From NCBI GenBank assembly GCA_020819635.1, contig GCA_020819635.1_4533.1: DNA of 64,000 bases, one strand, 5' to 3'. The translations under genes were made by a program, and so were the position numbers. The notes beneath the pieces were generated by a model. That model was not told the DNA's origin, did not search any database, and was given only the letters and a program-made list of their open reading frames with translations. Shown here in pieces: positions 8,711-60,051 of this stretch. The first letter of the stretch is position 1. Every line of letters begins with the position of its first letter. Origin of the DNA: Escherichia coli. Lineage in GTDB: Bacteria > Pseudomonadota > Gammaproteobacteria > Enterobacterales > Enterobacteriaceae.

Positions 8711-9037
8711 ATGGGTATTGATATCGAATGGCGTATGTTACAGGGTGCACCTTTTAATAAGTGGGAAGAGGCTGTAGGAGAAGATCCTAGAATTGAAGAA
8801 GAATTTGACGGAGATTTTAACTGGTTCTTACAAGAAGGTCTTGACTTAAGCCGCATCTCTCCTTTCTACGATGCGGATGAGTCTTATTGCATATATGGCC
8901 TTGATTTAGAAGGCGGAGAAGGAAGCATAGCTGTAGATCTTGAGCAATTGAATGAGAATGCAAAAGAAGCCTATGCAAAGCTACTTGAAAAATATAACAT
9001 TAAAACGGAAACTATTATTTCTCAACATGTCTGGTAA
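8711..9037 (+). CDS. hypothetical protein
   Basis: 108-aa ORF. Confidence 0.45.
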   Translation: MGIDIEWRMLQGAPFNKWEEAVGEDPRIEEEFDGDFNWFLQEGLDLSRISPFYDADESYCIYGLDLEGGEGSIAVDLEQLNENAKEAYAKLLEKYNIKTETIISQHVW

Positions 9038-9046
9038 GGAGAACTG

Positions 9047-10039
9047 ATGCGCTATCTGGTAACAGGTGGTCTTGGTTTTATTGGGAGTGCCGTGGTGCGC
9101 TCTCTTTGTCAAGATCCCAATAACGAAGTTTTTGTCGTTGATAAGATGGGCTATGCAGCAGATATTGAGAATGTAGGCGATATCACTCACGTTAAACTAA
9201 GCATAACAGATTTGGCAAACGAAACCCAGGTCAAAAGTTTAGTAGTAGAGTGCAATCCCGATTTCATCATTCACTTAGCGGCAGAGAGTCATGTGGATAA
9301 TTCTATCAAGAATCCACGAGTTTTCATCGACTCCAATATTATTGGTACATACAATTTATTGGAAGCTGCAAGGCTCCTCCCAAAAAATAAACTTAAGATG
9401 TTCGTACATGTCTCCACAGACGAAGTGTACGGCGATATGGCAGACTCTGGCGTTCCCTTTACCGAAGAGACAGCTTATGCCCCTTCAAGCCCGTACAGTG
9501 CGTCTAAGGCAGCATCTGACCATCTTGTGAAAGCTTGGTACCGTACCTACGGTTTACCTGTTGTGATAACCAACTGCTCCAATAACTTTGGACCTTATCA
9601 ACATCCAGAAAAGCTGATCCCAAAAATCATCACAAGTATCTTGACGAATAAAGAGATTCCGGTGTATGGTAAAGGCGATCAGGTGCGAGACTGGCTTTTT
9701 GTTGAGGATCATGCGCGAGCTATTCTTCAAGTGGCAACAGGTGGAGAACCAGGTCAAACGTATAATGTTGGAACACGTAATCCCAAAACCAATATGGAGA
9801 TCATCTATATGGTTTGTGACTACATGGATGCTGTACATCCAGAAGCAGGAACCTACCCTTCTTCCAACTTGATAACTTTTGTTGAAGATCGTAAAGGACA
9901 TGACTTGCGTTATGAAATCAATCCTTCTAAAATAGAGTCTGAACTGGGTTGGAGTGCAAACTCTACATTTGAACAAGATCTCTACTCAACGATTGAATGG
10001 TACTTAAACAACCCTCAATGGTGGAGTAAGAAGATTTAA
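9047..10039 (+). CDS. rmlB: dTDP-glucose 4,6-dehydratase
   Basis: N-terminal Rossmann motif [10 protein letters not shown]; family-typical [24 protein letters not shown]. Confidence 0.9.
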
Positions 10040-10047
10040 GGAGGGTT

Positions 10048-10926
10048 ATGAAAGGTATTATTTTGGCGGGAGGAAGTGGAACCCGCCTTCATCCGGTAAC
10101 ACGCAGTGTGAGCAAGCAATTGCTCCCTGTGTATGACAAACCCATGATCTACTACCCCTTATCGGTATTGATGTTGGCTGACATTAAGGATATCTTAATC
10201 ATCACCACACCAGGCGATCAGGAAGACTTTGAGCATCTTCTTGGAGATGGGTCTATGTTTGGGATAAAACTCACTTACGCAATCCAATCCGAGCCACGAG
10301 GTCTTGCGGACGCTTTCATCATCGGTAAAGATTTTATCGGAGAAGACTCTGTTGCTCTTATTTTAGGTGACAACCTATTCTTCGGACAAAGCTTTGGTAA
10401 ACTACTGATTAACGCTAGTGAGATGGTAGATGTTTGGGGCGGAGCTTGTATCTTCGGGTGTTTGGTGAAAGATCCTGAACGATTCGGTGTGGTTGAATTT
10501 GGGAGTAATCGTCAAGTTATTTCTATTGAAGAGAAACCTGAAAATCCTAAATCAGATTATGCTGTCACAGGTTTGTATTTCTATGATAACTCTGTTATTC
10601 AACGTGCATTAGAAGTAACCCCTTCCGCGCGTGGAGAACTGGAGATCACCGATATCAATCGCAGCTACCTCGAAGACAGGAAGTTACAAGTAGAAGTTCT
10701 CGGACGAGGATTTACTTGGCTTGACACAGGAACACACGCCAGTCTGATGGAAGCTGGTCAATTCGTGCAGACTATTGAGAACTGTCAAGGATTGAAGATT
10801 GCGTGCCTGGAAGAAATTGCTTTCAAAAAAGGGTGGATTTCTTTAGAGACTTTGGTCTACCATGGAAACTCACTGAAGAAAACAGAGTACGGGCAATACC
10901 TACTCAAATTAGCGGAGGGAAAATGA
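10048..10926 (+). CDS. rmlA: glucose-1-phosphate thymidylyltransferase
   Basis: [18 protein letters not shown] nucleotidyltransferase signature. Confidence 0.9.
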
Positions 10927-11489
10927 AAGTAGAAAAAACAAAAATTGAAGGTGCGGTAATTATCAAACCAGACGTTTATAAAGATGACCGTGGTTTCTTT
11001 TTAGAAACATATAATGAACAAAAATACGAAGATATCATTGGTAGACAAACTTTCGTTCAAGATAACATGTCTAAATCAAACTTCGGTGTTTTGCGAGGAA
11101 TGCACTTTCAAACAAATAATCCGCAAGGTAAGCTTGTTCGTTGTGTAAGTGGGGAAGTATTGGATTTCGCTGTAGACCTACGTAAAGATAGTCCTACTTA
11201 CGGTGCTTGGGACGGTGTTGTTCTTCGTGCACGACACCATACACAGTTCTGGCTTCCACCTGGTTTGGCACATGGTTTTATAGTGTTGAGTATGGATGCT
11301 ATCTTCGAATACAAATGCACAACTCCATACGACCCTTCCAGCGAACAAAGTTTACGTTGGGATGATCCTGATATAGGGATTGATTGGGGCTTCGATATGA
11401 TTTTTGACGAAGATTTTAAACCTATCTTATCAACAAAAGATGCAATGGCTAAGTCTTTTCAACAGCTACGTAGCGAGGGTGTATGCTAA
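10923..11489 (+). CDS. rmlC: dTDP-4-dehydrorhamnose 3,5-epimerase
   Basis: ATGA overlap with rmlA; cupin-type RmlC sequence (GMHFQ...); ORF-table start at 10803 is upstream extension. Confidence 0.85.
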
Positions 11490-12325
11490 CATATCTGGTA
11501 TTGGGTGGTAATGGACAACTGGGACAAGCTTTACGTAAAGTGGCTCCTTCAAATGTGTCTTTAATTTATCCTAAAGAACGTGTAGATATTACAAATTTTG
11601 AAGCTGTGCGAAACGCTATTATTGAAGATTATGTAGATGGTGTTATTAATTGCGCTGCTTATACGGCTGTAGATAAAGCAGAACATGATTTTGCTACTGC
11701 TTTGGCTGTTAATGCCTATGGCCCTGCAAATATTGCGGCAGTGTGCAGCAAACTTAAAATTGATTTTGTGCATATTTCTACAGACTATATTTTTAATTAT
11801 TCTCATCCTATTTTTGAAGATACTACACCTAACCCGATAAACAATTATGGGTATACGAAAGAACTCGGTGAAAAAATGGTGCGAGGAGTTAACCCGAACG
11901 CATATATTATTCGAACAGCGTCTGTATATAGTGAATTTGGAAATAACTTTCTAAAAACTATGTTGTCTCGCTATAATGATGGACAACGTGATTTTACTAT
12001 CGTTGCAGATCAGTTCTCTTGTCCAACATATGCCCCAGATTTAGCAGAAGCTATTTTTGAAGTATTAAAAACAGGTTGGTCAAGATCTGTAAAGACTTAC
12101 CATTTTGCAGGAAGCCATCTTATTTCTTGGGCGGAGTTTGCGGAAAAGATCTTGACACAGATGCCAGAACCTGTTAAGATATCGGCGGTATCAGCTTCAA
12201 CCTATAATGCTCCAGCAGCACGTCCGGTGAAGTCACAACTAGTAACCAGTCACTATCTTACAAAATCAGATTTAAATAAAGGTATTGAACGGTCTTTAGC
12301 AGTATTACTTAATAAGGAGAGGTAA
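11483..12325 (+). CDS. rmlD: dTDP-4-dehydrorhamnose reductase
   Basis: N-terminal LVLGGNGQLG Rossmann motif; position after rmlC. Confidence 0.85.
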   Translation: MLTYLVLGGNGQLGQALRKVAPSNVSLIYPKERVDITNFEAVRNAIIEDYVDGVINCAAYTAVDKAEHDFATALAVNAYGPANIAAVCSKLKIDFVHISTDYIFNYSHPIFEDTTPNPINNYGYTKELGEKMVRGVNPNAYIIRTASVYSEFGNNFLKTMLSRYNDGQRDFTIVADQFSCPTYAPDLAEAIFEVLKTGWSRSVKTYHFAGSHLISWAEFAEKILTQMPEPVKISAVSASTYNAPAARPVKSQLVTSHYLTKSDLNKGIERSLAVLLNKER

Positions 12326-12747: not shown

Positions 12748-13248
12748 ATGGCTAAAGTAGTAGATGAGTTTGATATGCTACGAGTCGATGAAGGACTGAA
12801 GCTTACTGTTTATCAAGACCATCTTGGTTATTGGACAGTCGGCATAGGACACCTTCTGACTAAAATAAAAGATAAAGCAAAGGCTATTCAAATCTTAGAT
12901 ACTCTTCTTGGTCGTAAGACTAATGGAGTTATCACAGAAAAAGAAGCCCGTCAAATCTTTGCTGACGATGTTGCAAAAGTGAAGAGAGACATAAAAAACA
13001 GTACTATCTTATCACCAATCTATGATAAGGTTAGTGATACTCGTAAATTGGGAATAATCAACATGGTTTTCCAGTTGGGGTTAAAAGGTGCTGAAGGGTT
13101 TCAAAATAGCTTGACTTTAATCAGCAATGCATATTATACTCAAGCAGGTAAAAACATGCGTAAAAGCCGATGGTATAGCCAGACGCCAAACCGTGCTGAA
13201 CGAGTAATTAAAGTTCTGACTTCTGGAACTTTAGATGCTTACAACTAA
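12748..13248 (+). CDS. T4-type lysozyme (glycoside hydrolase family 24 endolysin)
   Basis: EFDMLRVDEGLKLTVYQDHLGYWTVGIGHLL closely matches the T4 e lysozyme N-terminus. Confidence 0.85.
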   Translation: MAKVVDEFDMLRVDEGLKLTVYQDHLGYWTVGIGHLLTKIKDKAKAIQILDTLLGRKTNGVITEKEARQIFADDVAKVKRDIKNSTILSPIYDKVSDTRKLGIINMVFQLGLKGAEGFQNSLTLISNAYYTQAGKNMRKSRWYSQTPNRAERVIKVLTSGTLDAYN

Positions 13249-13252
13249 TAAA

Positions 13253-13270
13253 GGGGCTTCGGCCCCTTCT
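13253..13270 (+). terminator. intrinsic terminator with UUCG tetraloop
   Basis: GGGGC-TTCG-GCCCC then TTCT. Confidence 0.5.
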
Positions 13271-13285
13271 AAAAGGAGTGCTACT

Positions 13286-14044
13286 ATGGGAAATAAAACC
13301 GCAGCTAAAACACAACGGCAGAAACTGGCTAATTCAGCAAAGATTGAAAGCCGTTATGCAGCAAAAGCGGTAGGTAATGACGATTACCGTTTAGATGAAT
13401 TTATGCCTGAAGGGGACCAAAATAAGATTGTTCAAAGCATGATTTGGAATGATCTGACTGTTGTAAATGCTCCGGCAGGGACTGGTAAAACCTCTGTTGC
13501 TTTATGGAAAGCTTTGCAGATGCTTCGTTCAGGAGACTTCCGTAAACTACTTTTTATCAAGAACCCTACTGAAGTCGGAGATGACCAGATTGGTTTCTTG
13601 TCTGGGGATAAAACAGATAAACTAGCAGCACACTATGAATCTACAAAACGTATTTTCCAGCAATTCATGACAGCCAACAAATTGGAAAACGATATTGGAT
13701 CAGGTAAGATCGAATTGAATATTCCTAACTATTTGTTGGGGGCTACCCTGGATAATACAATCGTCATTATTGACGAAGCACAACTTATGTCAACAGAAAC
13801 ACTTAAACTTCTTATTGAACGTGCAGGTATTAATACGCATGTTATTGTATTAGGCGATGTTCGCCAGACATATGCAATTAAAAAACGTAGCAATGGTCTG
13901 CATCAAATTTTGGAACTTTTATATCCAGAAAATGAAGAAGGTGTTCGTGAGCCAATTGTAGATTTTATTGGATACGTTGAACTGACAACGGACGATAATA
14001 AACGTGGACGTTTGTCTAAACTGATTACTGAAGTGTTTATTTAA
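13286..14044 (+). CDS. phoH: PhoH-like ATPase
   Basis: Walker A NAPAGTGKTS and IIDEAQLMS; start set at ATG after AAAAGGAG. Confidence 0.85.
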   Translation: MGNKTAAKTQRQKLANSAKIESRYAAKAVGNDDYRLDEFMPEGDQNKIVQSMIWNDLTVVNAPAGTGKTSVALWKALQMLRSGDFRKLLFIKNPTEVGDDQIGFLSGDKTDKLAAHYESTKRIFQQFMTANKLENDIGSGKIELNIPNYLLGATLDNTIVIIDEAQLMSTETLKLLIERAGINTHVIVLGDVRQTYAIKKRSNGLHQILELLYPENEEGVREPIVDFIGYVELTTDDNKRGRLSKLITEVFI

Positions 14045-14076: not shown

Positions 14077-14580
14077 TTGATGGGTGTAGCAACAATAGCT
14101 ATCGGAAGAAGCGGTATAGATGAGTGCTATCAAACGGGACTCGTAAAACCTAACGAATTTCGTCAAATTTGTGTAAACCATATTGAAAAAGAGATTGCTC
14201 TTACTTTAGAGAATATGACCCTCCGAGATAAACTGGAAATGTTTAAATGTTGGTGTCTAGGAGAAGATTGGCTTTTAAACCATTTTCAAGAACTTTCTGA
14301 TAGTAAAGAAAGCTTGTTTGATTGTATAATAGGAATAGCTGGCTCCGATCCTAGCCTTCTGCACATAACAGAAGAAGAGGCGAAGTTACTGTTCTTAAGT
14401 AATTTGTTTAATAAGAAAGCACTGCTTGTTCGTGATTGTAGTGATCTTCTTAATAACCCGCTCGCAACGTCTGATCAAATTTTTGTTGACAAAGAGACAC
14501 TACGTGCGATAGAATACATCTGCAAATATGTGAATGGCGGGAAAGCGGTTCTTAAAACATTAACAGAGGAGGAAGAATAG
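14077..14580 (+). CDS. hypothetical protein
   Basis: 167-aa ORF. Confidence 0.5.
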   Translation: MMGVATIAIGRSGIDECYQTGLVKPNEFRQICVNHIEKEIALTLENMTLRDKLEMFKCWCLGEDWLLNHFQELSDSKESLFDCIIGIAGSDPSLLHITEEEAKLLFLSNLFNKKALLVRDCSDLLNNPLATSDQIFVDKETLRAIEYICKYVNGGKAVLKTLTEEEE

Positions 14581-15272
14581 TGACGACAATTATTGCAACC
14601 AAAAATAAGATTTTGAGTGACGGTAAGGTAACTTTTGGTGGACGTGTAGATTCTATTAATTTCAAAAAGGTCCGAAAAATTGGAGATTACCTTGTAGGTG
14701 GTGCTGGTCGTCTGACCTCCGTGCTTTCTTTCTTTCAATGGTTTGAACAAAATCTACAGTGCGAAGCAGCACGTGATGCTGTCCCTGGTTTGATGATTCA
14801 CTCTGATCCAGATAAAGAAGATGAAGAGTTTATTGCACTTGTTGTTCATCCAGACGGACGTATTTTCCTGCACGAAGGTAATAACCCAACACGTGCATAT
14901 CCGATTGATGAAGAATATTATGCGGTAGGAAGCGGGTCAGACTTTGCTTTAGCTGCTCTTGATGCAGGGGCAACACCAGAACAGGCTATGGAAGTAGCTA
15001 AAAAGCGAGATGCTTTTTCTGGTGGTGAAACATTTATTGAAGAACAAGACGAGATTATTGAATTAACAGATGATGATTTAGAAAACTTCTCCAAAGAAGA
15101 ATTGATCAATCTTTTGAAATTCGGTAATCCCTACGGTGAAGAAGAACCTCGTAACGTGGCAGGTAACGAGGCGGATACTGAAGAAAAATCTGTTGCAGAA
15201 AACAACTTGACTTCTAAATCTGAAAATATTAATCTCGTAAATGTGGCGGATTTCGAAGGAACCGCTATTTAA
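14580..15272 (+). CDS. HslV-like N-terminal-nucleophile peptidase with acidic C-terminal extension
   Basis: GTG start; TTIIATKNK after Met (Thr1 nucleophile), KKVRKI (Lys33 equivalent), AVGSGSDFALAA as in HslV. Confidence 0.6.
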   Translation: MTTIIATKNKILSDGKVTFGGRVDSINFKKVRKIGDYLVGGAGRLTSVLSFFQWFEQNLQCEAARDAVPGLMIHSDPDKEDEEFIALVVHPDGRIFLHEGNNPTRAYPIDEEYYAVGSGSDFALAALDAGATPEQAMEVAKKRDAFSGGETFIEEQDEIIELTDDDLENFSKEELINLLKFGNPYGEEEPRNVAGNEADTEEKSVAENNLTSKSENINLVNVADFEGTAI

Positions 15273-15277
15273 CAAAC

Positions 15278-15299
15278 TGCCCCTTCGGGGGCATTTCTT
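15278..15299 (+). terminator. intrinsic terminator
   Basis: TGCCCC-TTCG-GGGGCA followed by TTTCTT. Confidence 0.55.
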
Positions 15300-21330: not shown

Positions 21331-22272
21331 ATGGTGTTAATTGGTAGCCGTGCATTGCAAATTCATGCTATGGACATGGGAAAAGACTTGTATCGCCCTT
21401 GTGTAGATTTAGATTACCTGTGTACAGAACAAGAGTGGGAAGAATTATCAAAAATGTTCTCTCAAGAGGAGTTTGTTGAACTTGTAGAACGTAAAGGAAA
21501 CAAAGGCCATGTCAAAATGATAGCTGGTGCACATTTGGAATACGATATTGCTTCTCAAGGAGATAGCACAGAAGCTTTGATTAGTTATTGTGAAGATTCT
21601 GATGATGTTCGTCGAACTTACGCTGGACATGTTGTTGCTCCTTTAGATGTGCTCTACCTTCTTAAAATGAGTCATCGTTTTAAAAAGGATAGTCCTCACT
21701 TCTTTAAAACTATGAAAGATATTCATTTCATGCGGTCACTGGGCGCAAAGATCCCAGAAAATCTTAAGAGTATTTATGAGTTGCGTGAGAAAGAAACATA
21801 CACTTACTCTCATCCGAACTTAAACGTAAAAAGTAAAGACTTTTTTAAAGGTGATGAGGTTCCGTATGTTTATGATCATGATTCTATCCATGAAGCAATC
21901 GCGGTAATGGATGCTCCGGCATATAAATCTTATATGAAAGATGGAAGTGAAGTTATGACCAGCAAAGAAAAGTTTTTTGCTCAACCAAAACATGTGCGCC
22001 TGTTAGGTGTTTATGAAGAAGCGTGTGTTTTGGCTTTGGAACGTTCACAAATTCCTTTCGGTGGAGAGATCGGAGGTCCAACCCCTAAGCAAAGTTTTAT
22101 AATGGCTTTATCTAAAGTCTGCACATCCATCACTAGTGGTTGGTTTAGGGAATATGCTTGGGAAAACTTTTATGTTGTTATTAAGCTATATGAAAACATG
22201 GGCGAAAACGACTATGTTGAACGTTTTAAAGCTAATCAACATGTAGTAAAGCCTTTTGAAGGAGGTTATTAA
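21331..22272 (+). CDS. hypothetical protein, possible nucleotidyltransferase-like N-terminus
   Basis: 313 aa; LIGSRAL...DLD loosely resembles a Pol-beta-type GS...DxD motif; weak. Confidence 0.45.
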   Translation: MVLIGSRALQIHAMDMGKDLYRPCVDLDYLCTEQEWEELSKMFSQEEFVELVERKGNKGHVKMIAGAHLEYDIASQGDSTEALISYCEDSDDVRRTYAGHVVAPLDVLYLLKMSHRFKKDSPHFFKTMKDIHFMRSLGAKIPENLKSIYELREKETYTYSHPNLNVKSKDFFKGDEVPYVYDHDSIHEAIAVMDAPAYKSYMKDGSEVMTSKEKFFAQPKHVRLLGVYEEACVLALERSQIPFGGEIGGPTPKQSFIMALSKVCTSITSGWFREYAWENFYVVIKLYENMGENDYVERFKANQHVVKPFEGGY

Positions 22273-58911: not shown

Positions 58912-60051
58912 TTAGAACACGCTACCAAGTGTAGTGGAACGTTGTGTTACAGGCTCCAGCACCACTCGCAAAGTGTTTCCTGGTGTAGTGCTCATAACCA
59001 GAATCTTACCACCTTCAATCAGATCACAAGTTAGACCATCAGCCGTTGCACATAGATCAATATGTGGATCACCATCTTCATCCAGGATAACATAACTGTT
59101 GGTTTCCATTGCTTCCACTTCATCATCTTTCAAACTTTGTAGATAGATGTTCAGGGAACAAGCGCCCGACAAAAACTTAGTAGGGGTGAAGTCGTGCCAG
59201 TTATTGATCCAATTCACCTTCAAGGTTTTGCCATTAGCTACGATAGAAGCCACATTCCATTTAGCATCGTTCCCTAAAGAAATACCCATCATTTCAAGAC
59301 ATTCTTTAAAAGTCATTTTTGGATAGAAATTCAATTCTTCTACAATGCCTTGAATAACATCGAAAGACAACTCTGTGCTAACATCCCATAAACGTTGGAA
59401 GTTATCTACGTGCTTTTTATTTACCAAGTTCTTATCCAAGTAATCTAACATAGTTTCACTAGACAGTTTATCGTAATTGAAACTGTAGTAGATACGACTA
59501 GGACGGTTTACAAAATATTCCGAGATATAACCACTATTTTTAGTGAGGATGTAAAGTTTATTCCCACTTCCTGTTCCATCCAACAAGGTCAACAGTGCTT
59601 CCTGATCTTCTTTCTTAGCGTACACTTTATCAAATTCGTCAAATAAAACAACAGCACGATCTGTAATTTTACTCATAAATTCTAAGAAGCCAGCATCTGT
59701 GTAAGGCTGTGTAACCAAAATGGTTGGAATACCTAAACCTTCTGTGGACATTAGAGACATGCTAATTAGTTTAGCTAACATCGTCTTACCACTGCCTTTT
59801 GTCCCTGTCAGTAACACCCCAGTATTTTTACCTTCTTTACTACGACGAGCAAATGTTTTAATAACATGTGCGGCGCGATCTTTAGTTTCCCCATAAAGAG
59901 TGTTCGGAAGAGAGAAACTTTCACCACGCACTAAAGAGTAGTTACCGTGCGGATCGCAGTTGACAACCCAAACTCCAGCAGGAAGTTTATTAGCTTCAAC
60001 GCCATATTCCTTATTTACAACAGCTACATCTCCAAAAATAGTGTATTTCAT
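58912..60051 (-). CDS. AAA+/P-loop ATPase
   Basis: Walker A GTKGSGKT and Walker B VVLFDEFD. Confidence 0.6.
   Translation of the reverse strand: MKYTIFGDVAVVNKEYGVEANKLPAGVWVVNCDPHGNYSLVRGESFSLPNTLYGETKDRAAHVIKTFARRSKEGKNTGVLLTGTKGSGKTMLAKLISMSLMSTEGLGIPTILVTQPYTDAGFLEFMSKITDRAVVLFDEFDKVYAKKEDQEALLTLLDGTGSGNKLYILTKNSGYISEYFVNRPSRIYYSFNYDKLSSETMLDYLDKNLVNKKHVDNFQRLWDVSTELSFDVIQGIVEELNFYPKMTFKECLEMMGISLGNDAKWNVASIVANGKTLKVNWINNWHDFTPTKFLSGACSLNIYLQSLKDDEVEAMETNSYVILDEDGDPHIDLCATADGLTCDLIEGGKILVMSTTPGNTLRVVLEPVTQRSTTLGSVF

Follow-up and report, generated by a model that had tools for sequence, protein, structure and literature searches.

A proteasome-like threonine peptidase gene of a phAPEC8-like coliphage and its apparent kinship with compact phage homologs

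Proteasome-like proteins include several lineages that depart from the canonical HslV and proteasome types. The hallmark of PPH and RPC is a compact proteasome-like core without helix H2 (Fuchs, Alva and Lupas 2021, PMC8665760). PPH proteins are about 140 residues long and are found in tailed phages or phage-derived regions, with WP_042125023.1 as the representative, and RPC proteins, listed for Proteobacteria only, consist of a PPH-like core with extra C-terminal sequence (PMC8665760). The same survey places in the proteasome-like family connectase, which is a monomeric ligase, and many homologs that are perhaps unable to form rings (PMC8665760). The betaproteobacterial proteasome homolog BPH forms a double ring and is without a known unfoldase (PMC5777263). 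Here, we describe how a putative threonine peptidase compares with these systems. Its gene lies in a stretch of 64,000 nucleotides (the window) deposited under Escherichia coli as contig GCA_020819635.1_4533.1 of NCBI GenBank assembly GCA_020819635.1, which on sequence identity is a Phapecoctavirus, a phAPEC8-like coliphage. The peptidase apparently belongs to the PPH lineage, and it carries a long C-terminal extension.

14580..15272 including the stop, plus strand: gene for a PPH-type proteasome-like threonine peptidase of 230 amino acids (ORF list, PHROG 1040, Pfam Proteasome)

Family placement of the phage peptidase

A first-pass annotation made from the letters of the window had described an orphan HslV-like open reading frame (ORF) at this locus. 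The ORF is real, coding for 230 amino acids with a ribosome-binding site and superfamily matches. The product was aligned with E. coli HslV and 21 homologs (alignment A1), and a second alignment (A3) comprised 57 representatives of 50%-identity clusters, which are 28-57% identical to the window protein. The invariant columns of A1 are T2, D14 (the Asp17 equivalent), K30, G43 (the Gly47 equivalent and oxyanion Gly) and G117-S118-G119, confirming the proposal that a Thr1, a Lys33 equivalent and a GSGS motif match those of HslV. In the peptidase, TTIIAT follows the initiator, and AVGSGS contains the GSGS at residues 117-120. The initiator Met ahead of a Thr is cleaved by methionine aminopeptidase. 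The catalytic positions are the following.

14583..14585, plus strand: Thr codon of residue 2, the predicted N-terminal nucleophile (Thr1 without the Met), with T2 invariant in A1 and A3
14619..14621, plus strand: Asp14, corresponding to Asp17 of HslV and the proteasome, invariant in A1, conserved in at least 90% of A3 and opposite D17 of E. coli HslV
14667..14669, plus strand: Lys30, the Lys33 equivalent, within KKVRKI, invariant in alignments A1, A3 and A4
14928..14936, plus strand: Gly117-Ser118-Gly119, the GSG motif, whose Ser corresponds to Ser124 in HslV and Ser129 in the proteasome, with G117 and G119 invariant and S118 conserved in at least 90%

Profile searches revealed a match of the peptidase to Pfam Proteasome (PF00227) at 25.6 bits, against a gathering score of 22.4 (E 1.1e-5), and to PHROG 1040, "peptidase HslV family", at E 1.6e-63, in which residues 1-229 cover profile positions 14-247 of 277. 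The top sequence match in the PDB is HslV of T. maritima (E 4.9e-9). An AlphaFold2 model of the peptidase, with a mean predicted local distance difference test (pLDDT) of 82 and a core above 90, adopts the alpha-beta-beta-alpha fold of N-terminal nucleophile (Ntn) enzymes, and Foldseek comparison of this model with HslV, BPH and the 20S beta subunit gave E values of 1e-10 to 1e-8 and a TM-score of about 0.65 on the target. By sequence and fold, with a similarity well above what chance would give, the peptidase is a member of the HslV/proteasome-beta superfamily (MEROPS family T1), and its catalytic set is complete.

The peptidase is not a canonical HslV, and the HslV label holds at the superfamily level only. 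Of the HslV-like character first ascribed to it, superfamily membership and the catalytic set stand, but a strict HslV identity does not, as the protein fails the equivalog cut-offs and its model lacks H2. In the search with the NCBIfam HslV equivalogs TIGR03692 and NF003964, the peptidase scored 31.4 bits against a cut-off of 157.75 and 32.2 against 137, whereas E. coli HslV scored 288 and 304 bits; the identity between the two proteins is 27-28%. Relative to HslV, the peptidase is without four residues of the first hairpin and nine residues between helices H3 and H4, and these two deletions, together with a D..SGG motif near the core end, are common to the peptidase and phage proteins of about 140 amino acids. 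The AlphaFold2 model shows a single long helix H1 (residues 45-67) and no helix H2, whose place is taken by a loop; Pro69 and Pro77 in this loop belong to the majority consensus of A3.

14781..14828, plus strand: loop rich in Pro and acidic residues that replaces HslV helix H2, residues 68-83, coil in the AlphaFold2 model with a block pLDDT of 79-86

Thus placed beside HslV (ClpQ), the phage peptidase is similar in fold, catalytic residues, Met-Thr-Thr start and core size, and differs in having no H2, no hslU gene and a C-terminal extension.

Profile comparison indicated where the closer kin lie. A profile of the extended family matched, over the whole core, a profile built from 57 phage and metagenome proteins of 137-156 amino acids at E 1.6e-54 with 36% identity, and against single sequences it scored 155 for gp060 of Caulobacter phage CcrPW (142 amino acids) and 98 for E. 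coli HslV. Judged by sequence, the closer kin of the peptidase are these phage homologs of about 140 amino acids, not HslV. The lineage apparently corresponds to the PPH of Fuchs et al. 2021, a likeness drawn by description with the 137-156-residue proteins as a proxy. The peptidase resembles PPH in its tailed-phage origin, an MTT start without a propeptide, the Thr/Asp/Lys/Gly/Ser set and a compact core without H2, and both differ from HslV in a short S1-S2 hairpin, the lack of the H3/H4 insert and the D..SGG near the core end. Whereas PPH proteins comprise about 140 residues and no extra domains, the phage peptidase has a core of 155 residues, which includes a 16-residue loop in place of H2, and an extension of 75 residues.

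RPC likewise combine a core without H2 with additional C-terminal sequence of unknown fold, but they are proteobacterial, whereas the phage peptidase is without close relatives in bacterial species-representative genomes. A scan of those genomes returned no close relative of the extended peptidase except for one contaminant contig, which speaks against RPC. The contig, JAPMLR010000072.1 (425 bp, from a "Lysobacteraceae bacterium" assembly), is 100% identical to the peptidase gene and is probably phage contamination. BPH (PDB 5OVS/5OVT), a group I bacterial proteasome homolog, gives a structural match on par with that of HslV, but it has H2, a long acidic pore loop and heptameric rings, and its sequence similarity to the phage peptidase is marginal (E about 1).

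Probable action without canonical HslU docking

Canonical HslV is a dodecamer of two hexameric rings, and HslU with ATP stimulates its activity. In HslV, the pocket that receives the C-terminus of HslU is formed by F54 and F57 of helix H1, A79 and K80 of helix H2, and Q114 (PMC6429459). In a profile alignment, these positions correspond to L49, F52, D76, P77 and P108 of the peptidase, so that three of the five pocket residues (A79, K80 and Q114) are replaced. These replacements cast doubt on whether host HslU, whose use the first-pass annotation had offered as one possibility, could dock in the known way, and both the sequence and the model make canonical HslU docking by the phage peptidase unlikely. 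K28 of HslV pairs with the HslU carboxylate; by residue count on the profile alignment it lies opposite S25, a variable position.

The lack of an adjacent HslU-like AAA+ gene, noticed at first inspection, was borne out by the ORFs of the window and by the annotation of phage Schickermooser, a collinear relative with a complete genome that is mostly 87-99% identical to the window and contains no gene named HslU. A tblastn search with E. coli HslU (E <= 10), which extends the question to the rest of the genome by way of this near-identical relative, gave no match in the window and none in Schickermooser, where 150,000 of 151,194 bp were covered. A phage-encoded HslU was rejected on these empty searches of the window and the complete relative.

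The reading favoured here, with somewhat better than even confidence, is that the product is a self-assembling accessory Ntn threonine peptidase of a compact, phage-specific lineage, acting without canonical HslU docking. Action of this kind is most likely because there is no dedicated phage unfoldase and the H2 side of the pocket is missing. The host would remove the initiator Met and expose Thr1, and Asp14, Lys30, Gly43 and Ser118 would complete the predicted active site. By analogy with HslV and BPH, the active sites are probably enclosed within rings formed by the peptidase. Its targets in the early to middle phase of infection could be peptides or unfolded proteins, or else particular proteins of the host or the phage; the gene is located in a block of nucleotide-metabolism and replication genes. 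The C-terminal hairpin and the acidic disordered tail would most likely project from the particle and recruit or regulate.

Several points weigh against this reading. A literature search for experimental work on phage HslV-like or PPH proteins came back empty; beyond the family survey of Fuchs et al., it gave passing remarks in genome papers only. The absence of H2 derives from a predicted monomer model. The H1 side of the HslU pocket remains hydrophobic, with L49 in place of F54 and F52 in place of F57. To our knowledge, all known host genera of the peptidase phages encode HslUV.

In an alternative, the phage peptidase borrows host HslU, and HslU-capped hexameric rings redirect ATP-dependent degradation. 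Homology to HslV, the hydrophobic H1 positions of the pocket, the lack of a co-occurring phage unfoldase and the fact that the host organisms belong to proteobacterial genera encoding HslUV are all consistent with borrowing. However, H2 is missing in the model, D, P and P stand in place of A79, K80 and Q114, the 27-28% identity to HslV goes with scores far below the equivalog cut-offs, and the closest kin are compact phage homologs without known HslU dependence. Borrowing of host HslU is considered unlikely, and HslU dependence should not be assumed for the phage peptidase.

It had also been suggested that the protein acts as a decoy, which would titrate host HslU or another AAA+ protein without cutting. 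Compatible with such a role are a surface that superficially resembles that of HslV and an acidic, disordered tail that could pass for a substrate. However, Thr1, the Asp17 and Lys33 equivalents and the GSG motif are invariant or nearly so in extended and short phage homologs alike, including the 57 cluster representatives, the protein departs most from HslV in the elements for HslU docking, and the sequence of the far tail is not conserved. Since a decoy needs no conserved catalytic residues, this suggestion is very improbable.

A further alternative is a non-degradative Ntn enzyme, that is, an enzyme for site-specific processing, a ligase or transpeptidase resembling archaeal connectase, or a small-molecule amidohydrolase. 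The proteasome-like family contains connectase and the homologs that are perhaps unable to form rings, assembly could be changed by the loss of H2 and by the C-terminal appendage, and one Vibrio phage homolog in GenBank has the generic label "nucleophile aminohydrolase". However, the S3-S4 insertion of the connectase type is absent, and the best matches are the ring-forming HslV, BPH and 20S beta, leaving a non-degradative function improbable.

The accessory character of the favoured peptidase finds a natural case in phage VEcB, in which the locus is rearranged together with two genes that precede the peptidase gene in the window.

13235..14044, plus strand: PhoH-like P-loop ATPase gene, found 1-4 genes 5' of the peptidase in every examined phage that has the extended form
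14077..14580, plus strand: upstream gene X, 167 amino acids, PHROG 14834, whose stop overlaps the peptidase start by 1 nt

VEcB, a viable Justusliebigvirus (NC_052663.1, about 21483..21962), has at the locus one ORF of 267 amino acids, in which PhoH residues 1-113 continue in frame into the C-terminal two thirds of the peptidase, starting at about its residue 65. Lost in the deletion are the remainder of PhoH, gene X and the segment of the peptidase with the catalytic Thr, Asp and Lys. As VEcB is viable without the catalytic N-terminus, the peptidase is accessory under laboratory conditions.

The gene and its family have already been annotated and described. Added here are a label at the superfamily level, the conserved C-terminal hairpin as the best lead to a partner, and an AAA ATPase that does not co-evolve with the peptidase. 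Phage proteasome-like peptidases are common, and none has a known substrate, partner or phenotype. Finding the role of a viral mini-proteasome would add a new tool of host takeover or anti-defence, and would also inform the evolution of self-compartmentalising proteases without a dedicated unfoldase.

C-terminal extension and neighbouring ATPases

The extension past the core comprises about 70-75 amino acids (residues about 156-230), and residues 161-230 have a net charge of -13. The extra acidic tail of about 80 amino acids reported at first inspection thus exists as an acidic extension, but it is somewhat shorter, and part of it is a conserved helical hairpin.

15045..15122, plus strand: acidic linker followed by the conserved helical hairpin (residues 162-181, LTDDDLENFSKEELINLLKF), residues 156-181, from the AlphaFold2 model and the motif
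15123..15269, plus strand: variable, disordered acidic tail, residues 182-230, with pLDDT below 50 for residues 189-229

In the AlphaFold2 model, the hairpin consists of helices 164-169 and 172-181 at a pLDDT of 80-88, and the motif [LI]T.E.[LA]..[ML][ST]K[EK][EQ][LI][LI]..[LI][FL] was found in 55 of the 57 cluster representatives. Residues 182-230 show 16-19% identity to relatives with poor coverage. Among relatives, the extension is 13-195 residues long, and the whole extension is net negative in 56 of 57 (-2 to -35). A Pfam search with the extensions of ten longer relatives detected no known domain, and a profile of the hairpin motif gave nothing significant against PDB sequences, the best match being the extended homology region of MafG (E 0.087). 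The far C-terminus was also considered as a mimic of the HslU tail (...SRFIL) and was rejected; it shows no resemblance and is not conserved even in close relatives. In proteasome-like proteins, the C-terminus is directed outward from the ring (PMC8665760), and the conserved hairpin 162-181 is the most specific handle for finding a partner.

An extended form of the favoured reading, which is put forward tentatively and as unlikely, makes the peptidase an unfoldase-independent protease with a built-in targeting device that destroys a defined host factor early or, more boldly, one component of a new ATP-dependent protease with three parts, PhoH, gene X and the peptidase. The hairpin would dock a host or phage protein or gate the ring, and the acidic tail would mimic nucleic acid or a substrate. 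If this is true, a lytic phage would have a means of eliminating such a factor, perhaps a defence or nucleoid protein, at an early stage of infection.

As for ATPases encoded by the phage itself, the first-pass annotation was correct in that no AAA+ gene is adjacent, but it missed a distant one, which does not co-occur with the peptidase.

58912..60051, minus strand: the only AAA-type ATPase of the genome, 379 amino acids, PHROG 2376 (Pfam AAA, E 8.7e-7)

This ATPase, which corresponds to the single AAA-type entry in the Schickermooser annotation, belongs to the classic clade, and its best PDB matches, which are weak, are of the Rix7/Cdc48 type, not HslU or ClpX. The PHROG 2376 family comprises 395 phage records, mostly with Gram-positive hosts, which outside Escherichia come mainly from Enterococcus, Bacillus, Staphylococcus, Lactobacillus and Lactococcus. 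It spans coliphages, crAss-like phages, jumbo phages such as GAP32 and Serratia BF, and myophages of Bacillus, Enterococcus, Staphylococcus and Lactobacillus, and the labels "FtsH-like protease" and "ATPase or Zn metalloprotease" appear in some of its records. The top-10 organism names of the AAA family do not include Vibrio, Caulobacter or Rhizobium, and because the top-10 names of the two families differ, the ATPase and the peptidase do not co-occur. As a partner, the AAA ATPase was rejected on this phylogenetic profile and on a C-terminus, SVF, that is not of the HslU or HbYX type. No AAA+ gene was found near the peptidase homolog in seven Vibrio, Caulobacter, Rhizobium, Rhodobacter and metagenomic phages, nor at the Stephanstirmvirinae loci.

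The neighbourhood of the extended peptidase follows a conserved order, NrdAB, glutaredoxin, lysin, PhoH, 1-3 small genes and extended peptidase, which was seen in Stephanstirmvirinae, two metagenomic phages, Vibrio phages VnaP and 1.193.O, and Aeromonas phage phiA019. The synteny of PhoH and peptidase may reflect common descent of myophages of 115-155 kb; PhoH is absent from the vicinity of the short homologs in phages of Caulobacter, Rhizobium and Rhodobacter. Gene X is present at the equivalent position in phi92, PsgM04F, Tr1 and the two metagenomic phages, with 30-34% identity in the most distant, and was undetectable in the peptidase-carrying Vibrio and Aeromonas phages. Its AlphaFold2 model is all-alpha (pLDDT 92, predicted TM-score 0.83), and a Foldseek search with this model returned no PDB match at E <= 0.001. 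The invariant positions of gene X include several Cys, Lys-Pro-Asn-Glu and Asp-Lys-x-Thr. As a universal partner, gene X was rejected, since it is homologous in the enterobacterial-type clade only; it is a candidate clade-specific partner of the peptidase.

These observations bear on the alternative that the peptidase works with a phage ATPase, either the AAA protein at 58912..60051 or PhoH together with gene X in a new three-part machine. The AAA ATPase is the sole one in the genome, and the classic clade also holds proteasomal ATPases; in phages of E. coli, Vibrio and Aeromonas and in metagenomic ones, PhoH lies 1-4 genes 5' of the extended peptidase, and gene X overlaps the peptidase start. 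However, the AAA gene is 44 kb away on the opposite strand, its C-terminus is SVF, and Enterococcus, Bacillus, Staphylococcus and Lactobacillus are outside the top-10 organism names of the peptidase. Gene X is undetectable in the Vibrio and Aeromonas phages, the short homologs occur without PhoH, and common descent could explain the synteny. Either form of this partnership is rated as quite improbable.

Gene signals, genome of origin and distribution

The start codon of the peptidase gene is GTG, and the product opens with MTTIIATKNK. Relatives have ATG at the position of the GTG and an identical MTTII N-terminus, and the ribosome-binding site GAGGAGG is also kept in phi92, PsgM04F and Citrobacter phage Tr1. 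A hairpin follows the gene.

14566..14572, plus strand: ribosome-binding site GAGGAGG, 7 nt 5' of the peptidase GTG
15278..15293, plus strand: GC-rich terminator-like hairpin directly 3' of the peptidase stop, from a terminator scan

The stem of the 15278..15293 hairpin is retained in phi92 and Citrobacter phage Tr1 with different sequences, and because the stem is kept despite the sequence change, the hairpin resembles a conserved element for termination or RNA stability; it carries no terminator annotation in the Schickermooser record. A sigma-70-like promoter match is present inside gene X at 14486..14515 (plus strand), 65 nt 5' of the peptidase start (TTGACA, 18 nt, TAGAAT; 11 of 12 positions). 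This promoter is not relied on, as its -35 hexamer is kept in two of three relatives and its -10 hexamer is not. In the GenBank record of Escherichia phage vB_EcoM-Ro121c4YLVW, the peptidase gene is given as a "hypothetical protein" of 159 amino acids that starts from the internal Met72, a start that lies past the catalytic Thr, Asp and Lys, so that the family assignment is masked.

The assignment of the window to Phapecoctavirus is based on a 4-kb stretch around the peptidase, which matches Escherichia phage vB_EcoM_3A1_SA_NWU at 100% identity and 58 further Phapecoctavirus records (phAPEC8-like, Stephanstirmvirinae) at more than 99%. In all, the gene is present in more than 60 GenBank genomes. 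In RefSeq, the gene of these phages is labelled "peptidase HslV family", "putative ATP-dependent protease subunit" or "putative 20S proteasome". A tblastn search found peptidase homologs in 234 phage records (Escherichia, Vibrio, Caulobacter, Aeromonas, Klebsiella, Rhizobium, Shewanella and others), among which organism names assign 36 to Vibrio, 28 to Caulobacter and 10 to Rhizobium (together 74). A profile search of 1.84 billion cluster representatives at 50% identity gave 11,045 matches at E <= 0.001; the 60 at E <= 1e-30 nearly all have C-terminal extensions, and proteins of 137-156 amino acids mostly follow. The PADLOC models for defence and anti-defence matched neither the peptidase nor gene X nor the downstream ORF.

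A role as the prohead protease was considered and rejected. A related genome has a separate S78-type domain beside the portal gene, and the peptidase gene lies in the metabolism and replication block. The gene with this domain, at NC_048196.1 63491..63970 just past the portal gene, is named "DNA methyltransferase" in RefSeq with Peptidase_S78_2 in its own note, and is probably a misnamed prohead protease.

The host labels of some phage records (MG065650.1, MG065645.1, MG065639.1, OP562383.1 and OR584014.1) call for caution. Campylobacter phage B15 has 99.8% DNA identity to a coliphage, Acinetobacter phage ABPW7 has 99.7% ATPase identity, and Campylobacter phages A145 and A150 show identities equal to those of Justusliebigvirus coliphages; Pseudomonas phage PsgM04F is more distant, with 86% peptidase identity.

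Just 5' of the block with glutaredoxin, lysozyme, PhoH and the peptidase are genes of a full dTDP-rhamnose pathway (RmlA, B, C and D homologs), at about 9000..12325 (plus strand) by collinearity with the Schickermooser annotation, with the RmlD-like ORF at 11483..12325 as the sole member seen directly in the window. This pathway could serve in the modification of DNA or of surface glycans. At the locus of Vibrio phage VnaP, a gene at 10869..11465 is annotated as a ClpP-like protease subunit about 4 kb from the proteasome-like gene; as VnaP carries both genes, some phages encode two different self-compartmentalising peptidases.

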